DNA of 6,692 nt from a virus (lineage: Duplodnaviria > Heunggongvirae > Uroviricota > Caudoviricetes), in IMG/VR virus record IMGVR_UViG_2537562194_000022, positions 1 through 6,692 of that record, one strand, 5' to 3'. This document shows positions 1 through 6,692 of this stretch, one piece after another. The notes beneath the pieces were generated by a model. It had not been told where the DNA came from. It did not search any database and worked only from the letters and a program-made list of their open reading frames with translations. The translations under genes and the position numbers were made by a program. Numbering within the stretch: the first letter of the stretch is position 1; every line of letters starts with the position of its first letter.

Positions 1-189
1 TTTAAAACTGGTCGTCGTGCGGCGTTACGTGAGATCGAGGATGTGAAACACGATACGCGTGAAGCGGAAGATGTGCTGGATGTGGCGGTGGCCATTGCGG
101 AGGCAGACGGCGAAATTGAGCCGGAAGAGCGCAAGGTGCTGGAAGAGATTGCCGGTGTTCTGGGTCTTCGTCTGGAGAATCACCAGTGA
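1..189 (+). CDS. TerB-like domain protein, C-terminal fragment (5' end lies outside the window)
   Basis: Open frame from position 1 to TGA at 187-189, translating to FKTGRRAALREIEDVKHDTREAEDVLDVAVAIAEADGEIEPEERKVLEEIAGVLGLRLENHQ. The acidic AIAEADGEIEPEE...L segment resembles the TerB (tellurite-resistance-like) fold. Assignment is from motif memory only. Confidence 0.45.
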   Translation, partial: FKTGRRAALREIEDVKHDTREAEDVLDVAVAIAEADGEIEPEERKVLEEIAGVLGLRLENHQ

Positions 190-317
190 CGGTAAAACTG
201 CGCCTGGCTGTGGCTGCACTCCTGCTGTTTCTGGTGGTGATGGTGGATTTCACCAGCAGAATCATGTCGGTGCTGGCGGATGGGGTGCTGGTCTGCGGCA
301 TTGTGGTATTGCTGTAG
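186..317 (+). CDS. Small hydrophobic (probable membrane) peptide, 43 aa, possibly translationally coupled to the upstream gene
   Basis: GTG at 186-188 overlaps the upstream stop (caGTGAcg). Translation is MTVKLRLAVAALLLFLVVMVDFTSRIMSVLADGVLVCGIVVLL, ending at TAG 315-317, with two hydrophobic stretches. Below the length cut-off of the supplied ORF track. No homology evidence. Confidence 0.3.
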   Translation: MTVKLRLAVAALLLFLVVMVDFTSRIMSVLADGVLVCGIVVLL

Positions 318-349
318 CCGGTGATAAAAAGAAACAGCCTGCATAATGC

Positions 350-378
350 TTGATTTTTTTATTTGCTGTTTATTAAAA
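350..378 (+). promoter_or_regulatory. Putative sigma70-type promoter (TTGATT -35; AT-rich TATTAA/TTAAAA -10 region)
   Basis: TTGATT at 350-355 followed 15-17 bp later by tattaaaaat (371-380). The -10 is imperfect and lacks the conserved final T, so this is weak. Confidence 0.2.
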
Positions 379-520
379 ATACTACTGCATGGTGAATCCC
401 CCTGTGCGGAGGGGCAATCAGCAACCAGGTATATGTGATAATCGCGGATTCAGGTGCTGATACTGAATTCACCGGGAGGCACCCGGCACCATGCAAGAAA
501 AAGAATGTGCATGCAAACAT

Positions 521-544
521 GCCCCTCTCCGGAGGGGCTTTTTT
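521..544 (+). terminator. Rho-independent terminator
   Basis: 7-bp GC-rich stem gcccctc (521-527) / gaggggc (532-538), 4-nt loop tccg, followed directly by tttttt (539-544). Confidence 0.6.
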
Positions 545-636
545 ATGGGTAAAAAATGCCCGAATGGGTTCGGGCAATAGCATGAGATACTGATATTGTT
601 GTGTTGTTATCGTGTGGATTTTAACCAGGGTTTATC

Positions 637-663
637 AGGCTGCGCAACTGCGTGGCCTTTTTT
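637..663 (+). terminator. Second rho-independent terminator
   Basis: 9-bp stem aggctgcgc (637-645) / gcgtggcct (650-658) with two G-U wobbles, loop aact, then a T-run (658-663). Confidence 0.45.
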
Positions 664-670
664 CATTTCT

Positions 671-717
671 TGGGCTGTAGTCCCCGTGTGTCATTCAGGC
701 TTCCGGACTACAGCCCA
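671..717. promoter_or_regulatory. 13-bp perfect inverted repeat (operator-like or RNA stem-loop) about 45 bp upstream of the esterase start codon
   Basis: tgggctgtagtcc (671-683) is the exact reverse complement of ggactacagccca (705-717), separated by 21 nt. No T-run follows on either strand, so it is not a classical terminator. Confidence 0.4.
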
Positions 718-759
718 CTCCATATCTGATTTAATACACTATCCCGGCCGGGAGGAATA

Positions 760-2253
760 ATGACATTTAAACATTATGATGTTGTCAGGGCGGCGTCGCC
801 GTCAGACCTTGCGGAAAAGCTGACACACAAACTGAAAGAGGGCTGGCAGCCGTTTGGTAGTCCGGTGGCCATAACCCCGTACACACTGATGCAGGCGATG
901 ACAACAGAAGGAGAGCCACAGGTCAGCCCTGCAACTGAGCCGGATTGGTACTACGTCATCGTACTGGCCGGGCAGTCCAATGCCATGGCTTACGGTGAAG
1001 GGCTTCCGCTGCCGGATTCATACGATGCTCCGGATCCGCGCATTAAACAGCTGGCGCGCCGCAGTACAGTGACGCCGGGCGGGGCTGCCTGCAGATATAA
1101 CGATATTATTCCGGCCGACCACTGCCTGCATGATGTGCAGGATATGAGTACGCTGAATCATCCGAAGGCAGACCTGAGCAAAGGGCAGTACGGCTGTGTC
1201 GGCCAGGGCTTACATATTGCCAAAAAACTGCTTCCGTATATCCCGAATAACGCGGGGATCCTGCTGGTACCATGCTGTCGTGGTGGTTCGGCATTCACCC
1301 AGGGCGCGGAGGGGACATTCAGTGCGGACACGGGGGCCAGCCAGGATTCGGCGCGCTGGGGTGTGGGTAAACCGTTATATCAGGACCTGATTGCGCGCAC
1401 TAAAGCTGCATTACAGAAGAACCCGAAAAATGTGTTGCTGGCGGTGTGCTGGATGCAGGGAGAGTTTGACATGAGCGCCGCCACCCACGCACAGCAACCT
1501 GCGCTGTTTACAGCCATGCTGGCACAGTTTCGTGCTGACCTCTCCGTGTTTAACGCGCAGTGCCATGGTGGCAGTGCTGCAGATGTGCCGTGGATTTGTG
1601 GTGACACGACGTATTACTGGAAAAATACATACGCTACCCAGTACGACACCGTGTACGGCGGGTATAAAAACAGGGAGAGTGAGGGCGTTTATTTTGTGCC
1701 CTTCATGACAGACGGTAACGGCGTCAATACCGCCACTAACGCGCCGGCAGAAGATCCGGATATTCCGGCATCAGGATATTACGGTGCGGCATCGAGAACG
1801 AATGGAAACCAGGTATCATCAAACCGCCCGACACATTTCAGTTCATGGGCGCGCAGGAGCATTATTCCGGATCGTCTGGCAACCGCTATTCTGAACGCAG
1901 CCGGGCGCACCTCAGCCTTCATCAGTGGTAAGGCACCGGAAATCAAACCCTCGCCCGGCGGCAACACGCCATCGGGTCCGTCTGCAGATACGTCCGTTCG
2001 CACAATCTCCCTGCTGCCGGCAGCCGGAGAGGCTGCTGCGCAGGGCTGGAGCATTAAGGATGGCGGAATTCAGTTGTCAGATGGTGTATTTAAGATCACC
2101 AAGCAGAGCAATAAAACCTGGTCCCTGACGCATCCGGTGGATGACGCAATTACCCTGCTGACACAGGGCGGCAGACTGACCTGTGTCAGGCGCACTGACC
2201 AACAATCAGTTCGGGCTGGGGATTTATCTGTATACGGATGCTCCCGTTCCTGA
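760..2253 (+). CDS. nanS-p: Prophage sialate O-acetylesterase of the NanS-p type (DUF1737 N-terminal domain plus SGNH/SASA hydrolase domain); 3' end probably frame-shifted and truncated
   Basis: ATG at 760 preceded by gggagga RBS. The N-terminus MTFKHYDVVRAASPSDLAEKLTHKLKEGWQPFGSPVAI is DUF1737-like. VIVLAGQSNAMAYGEG carries the GQSN block of SGNH/sialate O-acetylesterase enzymes. 497-codon frame. Confidence 0.8.
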   Translation: MTFKHYDVVRAASPSDLAEKLTHKLKEGWQPFGSPVAITPYTLMQAMTTEGEPQVSPATEPDWYYVIVLAGQSNAMAYGEGLPLPDSYDAPDPRIKQLARRSTVTPGGAACRYNDIIPADHCLHDVQDMSTLNHPKADLSKGQYGCVGQGLHIAKKLLPYIPNNAGILLVPCCRGGSAFTQGAEGTFSADTGASQDSARWGVGKPLYQDLIARTKAALQKNPKNVLLAVCWMQGEFDMSAATHAQQPALFTAMLAQFRADLSVFNAQCHGGSAADVPWICGDTTYYWKNTYATQYDTVYGGYKNRESEGVYFVPFMTDGNGVNTATNAPAEDPDIPASGYYGAASRTNGNQVSSNRPTHFSSWARRSIIPDRLATAILNAAGRTSAFISGKAPEIKPSPGGNTPSGPSADTSVRTISLLPAAGEAAAQGWSIKDGGIQLSDGVFKITKQSNKTWSLTHPVDDAITLLTQGGRLTCVRRTDQQSVRAGDLSVYGCSRS

Positions 2254-2371
2254 TGGTGTGGCGATGACGGGTACCGGTAATCCGTTCCTGATGTCGTACT
2301 TCACTCAGACCACTGACGGCAGAGTGAATCTGATGCATCACAGGAAAGCCGGAAACACGAACTGGGGGTTC
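2183..2371 (+). pseudogene. Frame-shifted 3' continuation of the esterase gene, ending at the IS junction
   Basis: The +1 frame from about 2180 encodes protein-like sequence (ALTNNQFGLGIYLYTDAPVPDGVAMTGTGNPFLMSYFTQTTDGRVNLMHHRKAGNTNWGF), whereas the 760-frame ends in low-quality sequence (RLTCVRRTDQQSVRAGDLSVYGCSRS). The +1 frame runs into IS sequence at 2372. Confidence 0.4.
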
Positions 2372-2380
2372 ATCGATAGG
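2372..2380. repeat. IS91-like terminal repeat, ori-proximal end (downstream of tnpA)
   Basis: ATCGATAGG, preceded by GTTC at 2368-2371. Confidence 0.5.
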
Positions 2381-2558
2381 AATTTAAATCCCAAAAAGAT
2401 TAAAAAAACACCCAAAAACGGATGTTTATTCAACACTGCCTGCGTGCCATGAGTGCACCGCCGTCAATTAAATGGATCTTATCGATTGATACTGCATATC
2501 ACTGATGGTTTTTTACCCCATTCCCCTGAAAATGGACGCAACCTCTCCGATGCGGCTC

Positions 2559-3791
2559 TCAGCCGCACACCCGCTGTTGCGCCAGTGGCTCATGCATCAG
2601 GACCAGCTCTGTCAGACGGTAGCCCCGCTTCAGCCCCGTAAAACGCATCTGACCTCCGCACAGGATGCACTTCAGCGGGTCAACCTTCAGTAACCGCTGA
2701 TACATCCCTCTCCACCTGATTTGCATCGCCGTCTTTCTCACCGTCTCCGTTATGACGTACACAACATCTTCCAGTAACCGGCGCTTCACCGGACTCAGGA
2801 AACCGTAGTACCTCACCATACGGAACCCCTTATCCGCCACATGCCAGGAGAACCTTTCCATAAACTCATCACCACTCATCACCAGGTATTCTTCCCGTTT
2901 TGTCCGGTGACTGTTGTAACGCAGACCAATTTCATCCTGACCAGCATAGTGCTCCAGACGGCTCATCGGCACCGGCGGTTTTTTCAGGTAAGAGCCGAAG
3001 TACACCGCCACATGTGTGGCGTTATCCATCACCCGGGATACGTTGACATTCCAGCCCCGCCGGTAATGACTGTCCAGGAAGCGATTCCAGTCCCGTTTAC
3101 TGCTTCCTTCTGCTGCCAGCGCATCCGGTATCACCAGGTCCGGATATTTCCGTGACAGTAACCGCGTTATCCGGTAACGCCACATACTCATCACCTTACG
3201 GGCGTAAAAATGAAGGTTTTTCCAGGTGTGGTCTGATGTCACGCCGCCGGTCGTTGTCGACAGGTGAATGTGCGGATGCCACTGCTGGTCACGTCCCCAT
3301 GTGTGGATGACCGTGAATATCCCCGGCACCACATCTGCCTGGCGGCAGATTTCCTGTATCACATCCGCAGCAATGCGGCTCATCTCTGCCAGTAACCACC
3401 GGTTGTGGAACACCAGGGACCAGTACTGGCAGGGAAGTGTGAACACAATATGCTGCCACGGACAGTCGGGAACCAGACTCAGCAGATACTGTATCCACTG
3501 TGCGCCAGCCTTCACTCCGCAGTGCGGGCAGGAGCGACTTTTACACCGGAAGCAGATCTTTTTTATGTGGCTGCAGTCCGGAGATGAACAGCACCACTGT
3601 GTGTACCCCATCAGCGTGGTCCCGCAGGCCATGATTTTTGTCACAGACTCAATGACTACCGGACGCACTGAACCTTCCGGTTGTTTCTCCAGCCAGTTAA
3701 GCCAGCGGTTTCCCTGCTGAAAAATGTCGGCAAAACGGGGAAGCATCAGAAGGGCGGGGGGACTCCGTCCGGCCAGTGAACCGTGCCACAC
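2559..3791 (-). CDS. tnpA: IS91-family transposase TnpA (HUH Y2 rolling-circle transposase)
   Basis: 410-codon frame with a GTG start at 3791. N-terminal Cys-rich zinc-binding region (CCSSPDC...CFRCKSRSCPHC), HUH motif HPHIH, and a YxxxY pair (VYFGSY). The true start may differ. Confidence 0.9.
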   Translation of the reverse strand: MWHGSLAGRSPPALLMLPRFADIFQQGNRWLNWLEKQPEGSVRPVVIESVTKIMACGTTLMGYTQWCCSSPDCSHIKKICFRCKSRSCPHCGVKAGAQWIQYLLSLVPDCPWQHIVFTLPCQYWSLVFHNRWLLAEMSRIAADVIQEICRQADVVPGIFTVIHTWGRDQQWHPHIHLSTTTGGVTSDHTWKNLHFYARKVMSMWRYRITRLLSRKYPDLVIPDALAAEGSSKRDWNRFLDSHYRRGWNVNVSRVMDNATHVAVYFGSYLKKPPVPMSRLEHYAGQDEIGLRYNSHRTKREEYLVMSGDEFMERFSWHVADKGFRMVRYYGFLSPVKRRLLEDVVYVITETVRKTAMQIRWRGMYQRLLKVDPLKCILCGGQMRFTGLKRGYRLTELVLMHEPLAQQRVCG

Positions 3792-4111
3792 TCCGGGCAG
3801 TACATGCCGCCGGCGCTGATACCGGCAAGAATGGTCGCAAACTCCCGCTCCGTGCAGCGGGCTATTTCAGGATACCCTTCGTCATCAACACGTACAAACC
3901 AGAAGACCAGCTTTTTGTTTCCGGCATCCACAAAGAAGGGAATATTCAGGTCTGCGCAGCACTCAACGGCATCGTCAAAATTATCAAAGCGCAGAGCTTC
4001 TGCGTCTTCTTCGTCAAAGAAGTCATCGTCGTGAAGCTTCACGACATAGCGGGGAAGTTTGCTTCTTTGAGGGGCAGGTTTTCGTTTACGGGGTTTAGCT
4101 GAACGGGACAT
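3746..4111 (-). CDS. IS91 ORF121-like small protein (function unknown)
   Basis: 121-codon ORF with ATG at 4111, directly upstream of tnpA and overlapping its start by 46 bp. This length and position match the ORF121 of IS91. Confidence 0.75.
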   Translation of the reverse strand: MSRSAKPRKRKPAPQRSKLPRYVVKLHDDDFFDEEDAEALRFDNFDDAVECCADLNIPFFVDAGNKKLVFWFVRVDDEGYPEIARCTEREFATILAGISAGGMYCPECGTVHWPDGVPPPF

Positions 4112-4129
4112 ATAACTACCTGAAAGACA

Positions 4130-5572
4130 ATGATATTGTCTGTTTTTATAACGGTAATTTCAGGCCATGACAAGCCGCAGCCGCCAGGCTGCCTACTCGA
4201 TGATAAACAGCAGAGCGCCCTGACAAAAACAGAACGTGAGCTGGCCCTGTCCCGACTGAAGGGGGAGGAAAAAGAGCGTGTCCGGCTGGGGTATGCGGCG
4301 GATGACCTTGGTTTTGTGGGGGATTCGTATCAGGAGGCGAGACAGCGTTATATCAGTAATGCTCTGGAAGCCTGGCGTAATAACGAGGCGAACAAACCTA
4401 AATCCCGGGGTGGAAAATCAGAGACGGAAAAAGCGGAAGACAGTTTTTCCCGGCTACTGAAGCAGCAGAAAGAGCAACTGGCACTGGCCGGTCAGAACAC
4501 GGAGCTGGCGAAGCTGAAGTACCAGACAGCGCTGGGTGAACTGAAAACCCTGTCGGAGATACAGAAGCAGGAACTGCTGCGTAACGCGGCCCTGATTGAC
4601 CAGCAAAAAATCCGGGAACAGTTGCGATCCCGGGAAGAGACCCTGAAGAATGATAATGTGGCTGCGCGTGCATCAAATGAAGCCGAACTGCTGGGGTACG
4701 GGCAGGGAGAACGAGCCAGGGAACGCATGCGGGAGTTGCAGCAGATCCGCGACAGCTTCCGCCAGAAGGATGCGGACCTTCAGTCTCAGTATCAGACCGG
4801 GGATATCAGTGAGGATTTTTACAGACAGGCACGGGCACAGAACGCGCAGTATCTGAGCGAACGCCTTAAGGACCAGGCAGCCTTTTATGCCGAATCGGAT
4901 GCGCAGCGTGCGGACTGGCAGAAAGGCTTGCAGGAGGGGCTCAGTAACTGGGTGGACAATGCATCCGATTACGCTTCACAGGCAGCACAGCTTGCGACGG
5001 AGGGTATCTCAGGGATGGTGAATAACATCACGGAGATGCTGAACGGAAACAAAGTGGAATGGCGCAACTGGGCCTCATCCGTACTGCAGGAAATCTCAAA
5101 AGTTCTTATGAATGCCGCGATTGTCAACGGAATTAAGACGGCGGCAAACGGTATGTCCGGTGCGGGAGGATTTCTCGGCAGCATTGGTGACTGGCTGGGC
5201 GGGGCGGTGGCCAATGCAAAAGGCGGCGTGTATACCTCGGCAAACCTGAGTGCGTACAGCAACAGTATTGTGGATACGCCCACGTACTTTGCCTTTGCAA
5301 AAGGGGCGGGGCTGATGGGGGAGGCCGGACCTGAAGCCATTATGCCTCTGACGCGGGCGGCGGATGGCTCGCTGGGTGTGCGAGCGGTGGGCAGTATGAA
5401 CGGTAGTGCGGGTCTGGTGTATTCCCCGGTCTACCATATCGCCATTCAGAATGACGGGACTAATGGCCAGATAGGGCCGGAAGCTGCGGGCAGCCTTGTG
5501 CAGCTGATTGACCAGCGGGTGCAGGCGGTGATGCTGTCCATGCGACGTGACGGAGGAATGCTGAGTGGCTGA
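4130..5572 (+). CDS. H: Tail tape-measure protein (lambda gpH-like), C-terminal portion only; 5' end removed at the IS junction, first 24 codons are IS-derived
   Basis: Coiled-coil Q/E/R/K-rich middle, Gly-rich segment, and a C-terminus (VYHIAIQNDGTNGQIGPEAAGSLVQLIDQRVQAVMLSMRRDGGMLSG) that matches the lambda gpH C-terminus (NDGTNGQIGP...MRDGG). Phage-derived sequence begins at 4202, in frame. About 457 aa remain against about 850 for a full gpH. Confidence 0.85.
   Translation: MILSVFITVISGHDKPQPPGCLLDDKQQSALTKTERELALSRLKGEEKERVRLGYAADDLGFVGDSYQEARQRYISNALEAWRNNEANKPKSRGGKSETEKAEDSFSRLLKQQKEQLALAGQNTELAKLKYQTALGELKTLSEIQKQELLRNAALIDQQKIREQLRSREETLKNDNVAARASNEAELLGYGQGERARERMRELQQIRDSFRQKDADLQSQYQTGDISEDFYRQARAQNAQYLSERLKDQAAFYAESDAQRADWQKGLQEGLSNWVDNASDYASQAAQLATEGISGMVNNITEMLNGNKVEWRNWASSVLQEISKVLMNAAIVNGIKTAANGMSGAGGFLGSIGDWLGGAVANAKGGVYTSANLSAYSNSIVDTPTYFAFAKGAGLMGEAGPEAIMPLTRAADGSLGVRAVGSMNGSAGLVYSPVYHIAIQNDGTNGQIGPEAAGSLVQLIDQRVQAVMLSMRRDGGMLSG
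4192..4201. repeat. IS91-like terminal repeat, ter-proximal end (upstream of ORF121)
   Basis: cctactcgat; its reverse complement ATCGAGTAGG matches the left end with one indel. Confidence 0.5.
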
Positions 5573-5906
5573 GATAAAAACGCTGCATCTGGTCCCGCGT
5601 GAAGGGATGCAGGTGAGTGAGAAACCGTCGGTGGTGAGGGTTCGGTTTGGTGACGGTTATGAACAGCGCCGACCGACGGGACTTAATGCCAGACTGAAGA
5701 CGTTTCAGGCGGTGTTCCGGGTGACGGATGAACCAACCCGGCGCTGGCTGGATGAATTTTTATCCTGGCATGGTGGTTACCGTGCCTTTTTGTGGCGACC
5801 GCCGAAACATAACCGGACGGTGAGGGTGGTGTGCCGGGAGTGGAGCGTCACAGATAACGCCAGGTACAGTGATTTCAGTTGTACGATTGAGCAGGTGGTG
5901 AACTGA
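5565..5906 (+). CDS. M: Minor tail protein M (lambda gpM-like)
   Basis: GTG start overlapping the H stop (GTGGCTGA), with ggagga RBS 7 nt upstream. VRVRFGDGYEQRRPTGLNARLKTF...IEQVVN aligns with lambda gpM (VRKVRFGDGY...FEQVVN). Confidence 0.9.
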   Translation: MAEIKTLHLVPREGMQVSEKPSVVRVRFGDGYEQRRPTGLNARLKTFQAVFRVTDEPTRRWLDEFLSWHGGYRAFLWRPPKHNRTVRVVCREWSVTDNARYSDFSCTIEQVVN

Positions 5907-6604
5907 TGCAGGATATTCGCGAAGAAAGTCTGAACGAGTCGGTTAAGTCAGAGCAGTCACCGCGGGTGGTACTCTGGGAAATCGACCTGACGGTACAGGG
6001 TGGTGAGCGGTATTTTTTCTGTAATGAGCTGAATGAAAAAGGGGAGCCGGTCACCTGGCAGGGGCGTAAGTATGAGGCATACCCGATTGACGGCAGCGGC
6101 TTTGAGATGAACGGCCGGGGCAGCAGTGCCCGCCCGTCGCTGACGGTGTCCAATCTGTTTGGCCTTGTCACCGGGATGGCGGAGGACCTGCAGAGTCTGG
6201 TGGGGGCCACGGTGGTCCGCCGCCGGGTGTATGCCCGTTTTCTGGATGCGGTGAATTTCGTTGCGGGCAATCCGGAAGCGGACCCGGAGCAGGAGCTGAG
6301 CGACCGCTGGGTGGTGGAGCAGATGTCGCAGCTGACAGCCATGACGGCCTCGTTTGTGCTGGCTACACCGACCGAGACGGATGGGGCGCTGTTTCCCGGT
6401 CGCATCATGCTGGCGAACACCTGTATGTGGGATTACCGGGGAGATGAATGCGGGTATAACGGTCCTGCGGTGGCGGATGAGTTCGACAACCCCACCACGG
6501 ATATCCGGAAGGACAGATGCAGCAAGTGCATGCGCGGGTGTGAGATGCGCGGCATGGTGGCTAATTTTGGCGGTTTCCTTTCCATTAATAAACTTTCGCA
6601 GTAA
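5906..6604 (+). CDS. L: Minor tail protein L (lambda gpL-like)
   Basis: ATG overlaps the M stop (TGATG). 232 aa, as for lambda gpL. MQDIREESLNE...VVLWEIDLT...GGERYFFCNE...GEPVTWQGR...FGGFLSINKLSQ is collinear with lambda gpL along its length. Confidence 0.92.
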   Translation: MQDIREESLNESVKSEQSPRVVLWEIDLTVQGGERYFFCNELNEKGEPVTWQGRKYEAYPIDGSGFEMNGRGSSARPSLTVSNLFGLVTGMAEDLQSLVGATVVRRRVYARFLDAVNFVAGNPEADPEQELSDRWVVEQMSQLTAMTASFVLATPTETDGALFPGRIMLANTCMWDYRGDECGYNGPAVADEFDNPTTDIRKDRCSKCMRGCEMRGMVANFGGFLSINKLSQ

Positions 6605-6614
6605 ATCCTGTTTT

Positions 6615-6692
6615 ATGACACAGACTGAATCAGCGATTCTGGTGCATGCCCGGCGGTGTGCGCCTGCGGAGTCGTGCGGCTTCGTGATAGGC
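6615..6692 (+). CDS. K: Tail assembly protein K (lambda gpK-like), N-terminal 26 codons; continues beyond the window
   Basis: ATG at 6615, 10 bp after the L stop. MTQTESAILVHARRCAPAESCGFVIG matches the lambda gpK N-terminus. Confidence 0.85.
   Translation, partial: MTQTESAILVHARRCAPAESCGFVIG

Follow-up and report, generated by a model that had tools for sequence, protein, structure and literature searches.

Deletions flanked by an insertion sequence (IS) are a common route of prophage inactivation, including in enterohaemorrhagic Escherichia coli (EHEC). When replicative elements (IS1, IS26 and Tn3-type elements) make such adjacent deletions, the one IS copy that stays behind has an end joined to a new target, and the DNA on one side is lost. 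IS91, the element of the alpha-haemolysin plasmid (X17114), and its isoforms are about 1.83 kb long, carry orf121 overlapping tnpA by one base, encode an HUH/Y2 transposase with tyrosines Y249/Y253, lack inverted repeats and make no target duplication; CTCG stands at their terIS end, and GTTC or CTTG beside oriIS. All of this also holds for the element described here. The overlap of orf121 and tnpA is conserved in IS91, CTCG is the terIS cleavage site, and GTTC and CTTG are the targets found beside oriIS (PMC13181058). These two targets dominate, CTGG having received 1 of 292 experimental insertions, and the tetranucleotide adjoining oriIS is described as essential (PMC13181058). We analysed a stretch of 6,692 nucleotides of prophage DNA (the window) in which an IS91-family element lies between a truncated NanS-p-type sialate O-acetylesterase gene and the 3' part of the tape-measure gene H. 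Comparison with closed genomes argues strongly that the IS|tail junction is old, and that the esterase|IS junction is new and was made by the transposase.

The window is the entire draft contig AEZV02000056.1 of assembly GCA_000194355.2, found by exact-protein look-up, and its genes were called from an open reading frame (ORF) listing together with Pfam and NCBIfam scans. On the + strand it carries, in order, the 3' end of a TerB-family gene, a DUF3927 gene, the esterase gene (760-2371), the IS91-family element on the opposite strand (2372-4199), the C-terminal part of H (4200-5572), M, L and the start of K. The original prediction, made from the letters alone, had placed the IS at a deletion or rearrangement joint inside a late operon. 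Indeed, each flanking gene breaks off precisely where the IS begins or ends, both stand on the same strand and in lambdoid order, and the genes between them are missing. We determined the IS boundaries by aligning the window with independent plasmid and chromosome copies, at least 10 in all, and taking the points where the copies diverge as the ends. Sequence common to the copies runs from 2372 (ATCGATAGGAATTTAAATCC...; ATCGATAGG...) to 4199 (...GCTGCCTACTCG, ...CTACTCG), which gives a complete element of 1,828 bp. Its oriIS end (ATCGATAGG...) and terIS end (...CTACTCG) are unrelated, and there are no terminal inverted repeats. We assign the end at 2372 to oriIS because it lies downstream of tnpA and is preceded by GTTC (2368-2371, + strand); as had been noticed earlier, only this end abuts GTTC.

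The junction on the tail side is the older one. Intact relatives of H are 3,243 nt long, encode about 1,080 amino acids and lie upstream of M-L-K; the window holds only the last 1,373 nt (457 codons), recognized by Tape_meas_lam_C (PF09718, 1e-18) and followed by M, L and K. Using a 600-bp probe, we found the H 5'|oriIS junction complete in 33 complete genomes, every one with a stated serotype being O111. In these genomes, which include strain 11128, the same IS is a simple insertion in H, the prophage is otherwise full-length, and it occupies the same chromosomal site. A synthetic empty site, composed of the H 5' end from 11128 and the H 3' start from the window, rebuilds intact H base for base, leaving no target-site duplication. 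More than 1,900 genomes match this site without a break, at 99.7%, and two intact H genes of 3,243 nt agree with it at the junction to the base. The primary insertion of the IS was thus simple and precise, falling after nucleotide 1870 of H and duplicating nothing. Its oriIS flank is CTGG (L002 19997-20000, the 11128 locus), and position 4199/4200 of the window is its other joint. A probe across the terIS|H junction was complete and identical in exactly 37 complete genomes: the 33 with the simple insertion, two with the joint seen in the window (95NR1 and 95JB1), and one each with the joints of strains 8B and 9662. The suspicion that the tape-measure gene of related phages might simply begin near 4130-4202 was also checked, and intact H genes do not start there. 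An ATG in the terIS region does open a 480-codon ORF (4130-5572) that crosses the IS boundary and stays in frame with the H 3' fragment; judged from its reading frame, a truncated C-terminal fragment of the tape-measure protein could in principle be translated from it.

The original prediction had proposed comparing the window with related prophages, and in the O111:H- strain 11128 an intact esterase gene and the 5' half of H both lie on the oriIS side of the IS. The 11128 prophage runs from this esterase gene through holin, lysozyme and spanin genes, then terminase, capsid, portal, connector, tail-tube and chaperone genes, to H 5'|IS91|H 3'; beyond the IS follow M, L, K, I, J, lom, fibre genes and the effector genes nleH1-2, nleF, nleG and espM1, up to the tonB to ompW flank. 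The esterase reading frame of 11128 continues past the GTTC (GTTC|GGCGATTAC), whereas that of the window is cut after the nucleotide equivalent to 1626 of 1851. The esterase|oriIS junction was complete in only two complete genomes, those of 95NR1 and 95JB1, both closed with PacBio reads. The left arm of the 95NR1 locus is colinear with 11128 at 99.1-99.9% identity, and its right arm at 99.86-99.96% over >22 kb, reaching into the chromosome with the same tonB to ompW flank; at the other end, int adjoins rspB in 95NR1, as it does in 8B. In contrast, 15,830 bp of the 11128 locus (L002 4171-20000) had no match anywhere in the 46.6-kb 95NR1 locus. Colinear arms around a segment that is gone indicate an in-situ deletion next to oriIS.

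With the 15,830 bp went the lysis, terminase, capsid, portal, connector, tail-tube and chaperone genes and the first 1,870 nt of H, which bears out the earlier reading that lysis, terminase, portal, head and proximal tail genes and the first half of H are missing. A head and packaging module immediately upstream of the esterase would have spoken against that reading; upstream in the closed genomes of 95NR1 and 95JB1 are, instead, Q, early genes and int. The prophage cannot make particles and is cryptic, as had been proposed from its inability to make a tail or package DNA. It was already defective before the deletion because H had been interrupted; in both 11128 and strain 7-16 37A, the annotation marks the portal gene, too, as frameshifted.

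Since the window is a short contig, we asked how it relates to these loci. Its best full-length matches among complete E. coli genomes are 95NR1 and 95JB1 (99.0% over 114-6692). The tail arm is closest to 95NR1, 95JB1 and 8B (99.0%, against 98.4% for other O111 genomes), and the esterase gene carries an 11-bp deletion between 2183 and 2184 (TAAGTTCCGCC in 11128) that frameshifts it about 190 bp before the IS. This deletion is common to the window and 95NR1 and absent from 11128 and from another O111 paralogue, and thus serves as a lineage marker tying the window to the 95NR1 locus. Together, the marker and the tail arm place the window in the locus of the 95NR1 sublineage. No complete E. coli genome is identical to either arm, the best being 98.6% for the left and 99.0% for the right. 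Differences from 95NR1 cluster at 1-113, 879-929, 1393-1446, 4489-4561 and 6487-6661, with small indels that include three bases missing at 2362-2368, just left of the joint. Positions 1-113 agree with a paralogue in another O111 prophage but not with the 95NR1 locus, and many of the left-arm differences match the esterase paralogue of another O111 prophage. From the pattern of matches, the mosaic would be either a collapsed draft consensus or the result of gene conversion.

A window of this kind, a whole contig of multi-copy sequence about 1% off every complete genome, with paralogue-like patches and indels beside the joint, invites the explanation that its esterase|IS and IS|H 3' halves come from different IS91 copies joined through a collapsed 1.8-kb repeat, in which case the source genome would lack the deletion. 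We consider such an assembly chimera very unlikely and have largely rejected it, because the identical arrangement is present in two genomes closed with long reads and the esterase segment carries the 11-bp marker of the 95NR1 locus. Furthermore, the tail segment best matches 95NR1, 95JB1 and 8B, and there is no complete genome with an IS91 copy that has the esterase 3' part on its ter side.

The 95NR1 type of joint is not the only one made next to this IS copy. Strain 8B carries this IS with an unchanged terIS|H junction; its oriIS is preceded by a CTTG located just downstream of the DUF3927 gene, which amounts to a loss of 17,547 bp that includes the whole esterase gene. In strain 9662, with an identical terIS|H junction, oriIS abuts GTTC inside an IS1203 copy in the early region. 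Among the 37 carriers, ori-side losses thus occurred in four genomes (three joint types), and ter-side losses in none. All three new joints abut canonical targets, GTTC (window type), CTTG (8B) and GTTC (9662), on the strand carrying the ori cleavage site. GTTC or CTTG makes up 0.49% of positions on that strand of the prophage, and the probability of three such joints by chance is p ~1.2e-7. More generally, the oriIS flank was GTTC or CTTG in 10 of the 12 distinct junctions that we read, the exceptions being CTGG at the primary insertion in H and CTCG in a tandem copy. Given that every new joint lies at a canonical target, we conclude that the joints were made by the IS91 transposase and not by random breakage; the earlier suggestion that 2371/2372 is a newly made, transposase-type junction stands.

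The breakpoints also decide the case of a deletion that owes nothing to the IS, in which illegitimate or microhomology recombination would have ended by chance at the IS boundary. Prophages of this lineage do have other, IS-independent deletions, such as the loss from ydaT to Q in 11128. However, the three deletions at the H copy, each different, all end exactly at the first base of oriIS and all start exactly after GTTC or CTTG (p ~1e-7). These statistics make an IS-independent origin untenable, and we have rejected it as next to impossible.

The original prediction had favoured yet another origin, in which termination failed at the ter end and tail DNA was carried along from a donor cluster elsewhere. 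One-ended transposition past terIS would have brought H 3'-M-L-K into the esterase GTTC. Such events are frequent for IS91, at 1-10% classically and up to about 50% without Orf121 (PMC13181058), and the new joint does lie at a canonical target. The comparative data nevertheless contradict this origin. The terIS|H junction is ancestral, being identical in all 37 genomes, and in 33 of them the undeleted state is found at the same locus, with the matching 5' half of H across the IS; the tail DNA was, therefore, already in place. Both arms are colinear with 11128 as far as the same chromosomal flanks, the tail arm for >22 kb into the same effector genes and tonB to ompW flank. No esterase 3' end and no lysis genes follow the tail arm. 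Finally, the lost DNA was ori-side, whereas one-ended transposition mobilises ter-side DNA. We have rejected import of the tail genes, an extremely improbable event, since the tail genes on the ter side have not moved and the loss is on the ori side.

The results above fit a history of the following form. In a lambdoid prophage of the E. coli O111 lineage, an IS91-family element first inserted precisely after nucleotide 1870 of H, without duplication and with oriIS beside the rare CTGG. The sublineage of 95NR1 and 95JB1, including the window, then lost 15,830 bp in situ between the esterase GTTC and oriIS, leaving terIS|H untouched, and two other O111 strains independently lost larger oriIS-side segments next to the same IS copy, all new joints being, in all likelihood, the work of the IS91 transposase. 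We regard this much of the history, from the insertion in H through the in-situ, ori-side loss to the transposase-made joints, as very probable.

How the transposase led to the loss is less certain. The route that we favour has two parts: a copy of the IS, from H or from identical plasmid copies, may have inserted at the esterase GTTC in direct orientation as a second-site simple insertion, and RecA-dependent homologous recombination between the two 1.8-kb copies would then have removed one copy and the interval. What is left is a prophage with int, the early genes, Q, the distal tail genes and its type III secretion system (T3SS) effector cargo, without lysis, packaging, head and proximal tail genes. 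To this full history, including second-site insertion followed by recombination between IS copies, we assign a probability of about 0.5, favouring it over a one-step transfer of the oriIS end. Intramolecular transposition of IS91 reportedly gives second-site simple insertions, going by the title of Bernales et al. 1999 as cited in PMC13181058. The element has been active in the lineage, as a direct-orientation insertion in the same prophage of strain 7-16 37A and an insertion in strain 12690 show, and identical plasmid copies with canonical flanks are available as donors. Initiation at the H copy is disfavoured because its CTGG flank should make a poor ori substrate, the adjacent tetranucleotide being described as essential. 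The recombination part also has a precedent, since recombination involving IS801 copies reportedly deletes plasmid DNA (PMC6354349).

Several observations weigh against this history. A two-copy intermediate predicts the reciprocal junction terIS|esterase 3' (GCTGCCTACTCG|GGCGATTACGG) together with H 5'|oriIS (CCACCCTGG|ATCGATAGG); the IS ter|esterase 3' junction was present in 0 of 5,426 complete genomes, and the two-copy intermediate was not found. All three deletions are ori-side, which recombination does not require, 3 out of 3 being only weakly significant. A hybrid IS was looked for; the O111 copies differ by 0-2 nt, so that a recombinant is unrecognisable. In addition, the window is a short draft contig of repeats, mosaic relative to 95NR1 and lacking three bases left of the joint, so its own linkage rests on the closed relatives.

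Some standing belongs to a one-step intramolecular event, in effect an aborted rolling-circle transposition. Here, TnpA would nick the bottom strand at oriIS of the H copy (CTGG^ATCG) and at the upstream GTTC^ on the same strand, and join the GTTC-3'OH of the esterase gene to the IS 5' end; 15.8 kb would leave as a single strand, and replication would fix the deletion. The three variants are ori-side with none ter-side among the 37 carriers, a count of 3 against 0 that is not statistically decisive, and the target tetranucleotide of every new joint is on the strand that bears the ori and ter cleavage sites. The lack of any two-copy intermediate among the 5,426 complete genomes is likewise in its favour, and its topology resembles that of the deletions by IS801, which have the ori border in common and GAAC or CAAG at the variable border (PMC6354349). 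On the other hand, the H copy is flanked by CTGG, which received only 1 of 292 insertions, and the tetranucleotide at that place is called essential; the current model, moreover, favours an excised single-stranded circle as the intermediate (PMC13181058). The IS801 deletions arise as self-replicating plasmid circles, a route closed to a chromosome, and the sole intramolecular IS91 assay that we found cited is titled as giving second-site simple insertions. We therefore hold the one-step event to be a possible but weaker explanation of the window joint. That all three nested deletions are direct, single-step TnpA products in the chromosome, with oriIS transferred to an upstream GTTC or CTTG on the same strand and transposition left incomplete, we consider doubtful; a single-step ori-side deletion reaction has not been reported in plasmid assays of IS91. 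If true, it would make IS91-family elements unidirectional deletion generators in chromosomes, each event replacing the crippling CTGG ori flank by a canonical one and thereby re-arming the copy. The H copy with its CTGG flank may be a poor donor, and each deletion puts a canonical tetranucleotide in place of this flank.

We noted that the element itself, although it has every structural hallmark of the IS91 family as well as the orf121 feature of IS91 proper, is probably not IS91 in the strict sense. Its tnpA (2559-3746, - strand) encodes an HUH/Y2 rolling-circle transposase of 395 amino acids, with a zinc-binding domain at the N-terminus, that matches PF04986 (1e-39) and PF14319 (3e-19), scores 291 bits against a cutoff of 125 for the NF033538 equivalog, and carries HPHIH at 167-171 and tyrosines Y249/Y253. 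The stop codon of orf121 (3746-4111, - strand) overlaps the tnpA start by 1 nt (TGATG), the feature described in PMC13181058. The oriIS end occupies about 82 bp (2372-2453, - strand), a functional length taken from PMC13181058, and has a subterminal palindrome at 2379-2392; the terIS end (4112-4199, - strand) closes with CTCG (4196-4199), the tetranucleotide at which cleavage takes place. Compared with the copies in 95NR1, 11128, 8B and 9662, the element has a single-nucleotide difference, at position 2543. The cut-off for IS91 isoforms is 95% identity to IS91 V1 in nucleotides and in TnpA (PMC13181058). The window element is about 90% (90.2%) identical in nucleotides, and its TnpA 94% identical in amino acids, to a copy named 'IS91-like element IS91' by the Prokaryotic Genome Annotation Pipeline. 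On these identities the element probably falls outside the isoform definition, and is best called a close relative within the IS91 family.

The family is also present on EHEC plasmids (L004 1471-1510; L015 3325-4480), where head-to-tail IS91 tandems have a CTCG|ATCG junction. Plasmid pE2855-4 carries one full IS91 copy followed by two repeated partial units, each consisting of orf121 and the tnpA start. These tandems and partial units look like rolling-circle multimers and internal ori-side truncations.

The esterase gene on the left of the IS (760-2371, + strand) is both truncated and frameshifted. It has a DUF1737 N-terminus, a SASA (SGNH) esterase domain and a NanS-p C-terminal domain (DUF6645), the last of which shifts frame near residue 475 and is broken off near residue 542. 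The intact homologue of 11128, with 616 amino acids, hits two solved structures, NanS (3pt5, 2e-121) and the C-terminal domain of NanS-p (6yp6, 8e-30), so the label NanS-p-type esterase holds. Further upstream on the + strand lie the 3' end of the TerB-family gene (1-189, PF05099), which runs off the contig start, and the small DUF3927 gene (186-317), which is found upstream of the esterase gene also in 95NR1 and 11128. Downstream of H follow, on the same strand, the minor tail protein genes M (5565-5906, PF05939) and L (5906-6604, PF05100), and the first 26 codons of the tail protein gene K, a C40 peptidase (6615-6692), which runs off the contig end.

Each sublineage shows independent decay of this prophage. 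Strain 11128 has a deletion of its own, from ydaT through the Q antiterminator gene (L002 1571-1969 against L001 15805-19870), that is not shared by 95NR1, 8B or 9662, and IS1203 is located differently in 95NR1 and 8B than in 9662. Strain 7-16 37A has a new simple insertion of IS91 in direct orientation, at a CTTG of this prophage's early region (L008 9007-10834), and we found no other carrier of this insertion. The right arm of this prophage was replaced by a tail module from another prophage, which includes sodC and an intact H (L008, L010); it is flanked by uspF and ompN instead of tonB and ompW, and the H::IS91 copy is missing. In strain 12690, a different lambdoid prophage carries the same IS, differing by 3 nt, as a simple insertion at a CTTG within its S49 head-protease gene (L009 9014-10841); here, too, the element has disabled a gene for phage morphogenesis.

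IS-associated decay of EHEC prophages is commonplace, and the rearrangement described here is explained by a simple comparison of sister genomes. Its junctions are unusually informative for ordinary prophage decay. The locus shows, through natural intermediates and one step at a time, how an EHEC prophage that carries effectors becomes trapped in the chromosome: the IS first disables the tape-measure gene, and IS-associated deletions then strip the lysis, packaging and head genes while the T3SS cargo (nleH1-2, nleF, nleG and espM1) is kept. With one fixed terIS, one non-canonical primary oriIS and three canonical secondary junctions, the 37 genomes form a small natural data set on the remodelling of adjacent chromosomal DNA by an IS91-family element. 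For genome scanning, the case shows that an IS-flanked joint in a short draft contig needs comparison with closed genomes before it is interpreted.

A close described counterpart is the IS801 series on plasmid pPsv48C of Pseudomonas syringae (PMC6354349). As in the O111 genomes, its deletions are nested and share the fixed ori-end border of a single IS copy, their variable border is always at a target tetranucleotide of the family, and the ter-side DNA is retained. The IS801 products, however, are self-replicating circles that arise by one-ended rolling-circle transposition round a small plasmid, from a ter-defective isoform. The O111 locus, in contrast, lies in a 5.4-Mb chromosome, and terIS and the original junction are intact in all 37 genomes. 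The resemblance to IS801 is, therefore, one of outcome and not of route. Elements such as IS1, IS26 and those of the Tn3 type use DDE transposases and leave a target duplication signature across their products, whereas IS91 moves by an HUH enzyme without duplicating its target, and its two ends differ in function, producing the strictly one-sided pattern seen here.

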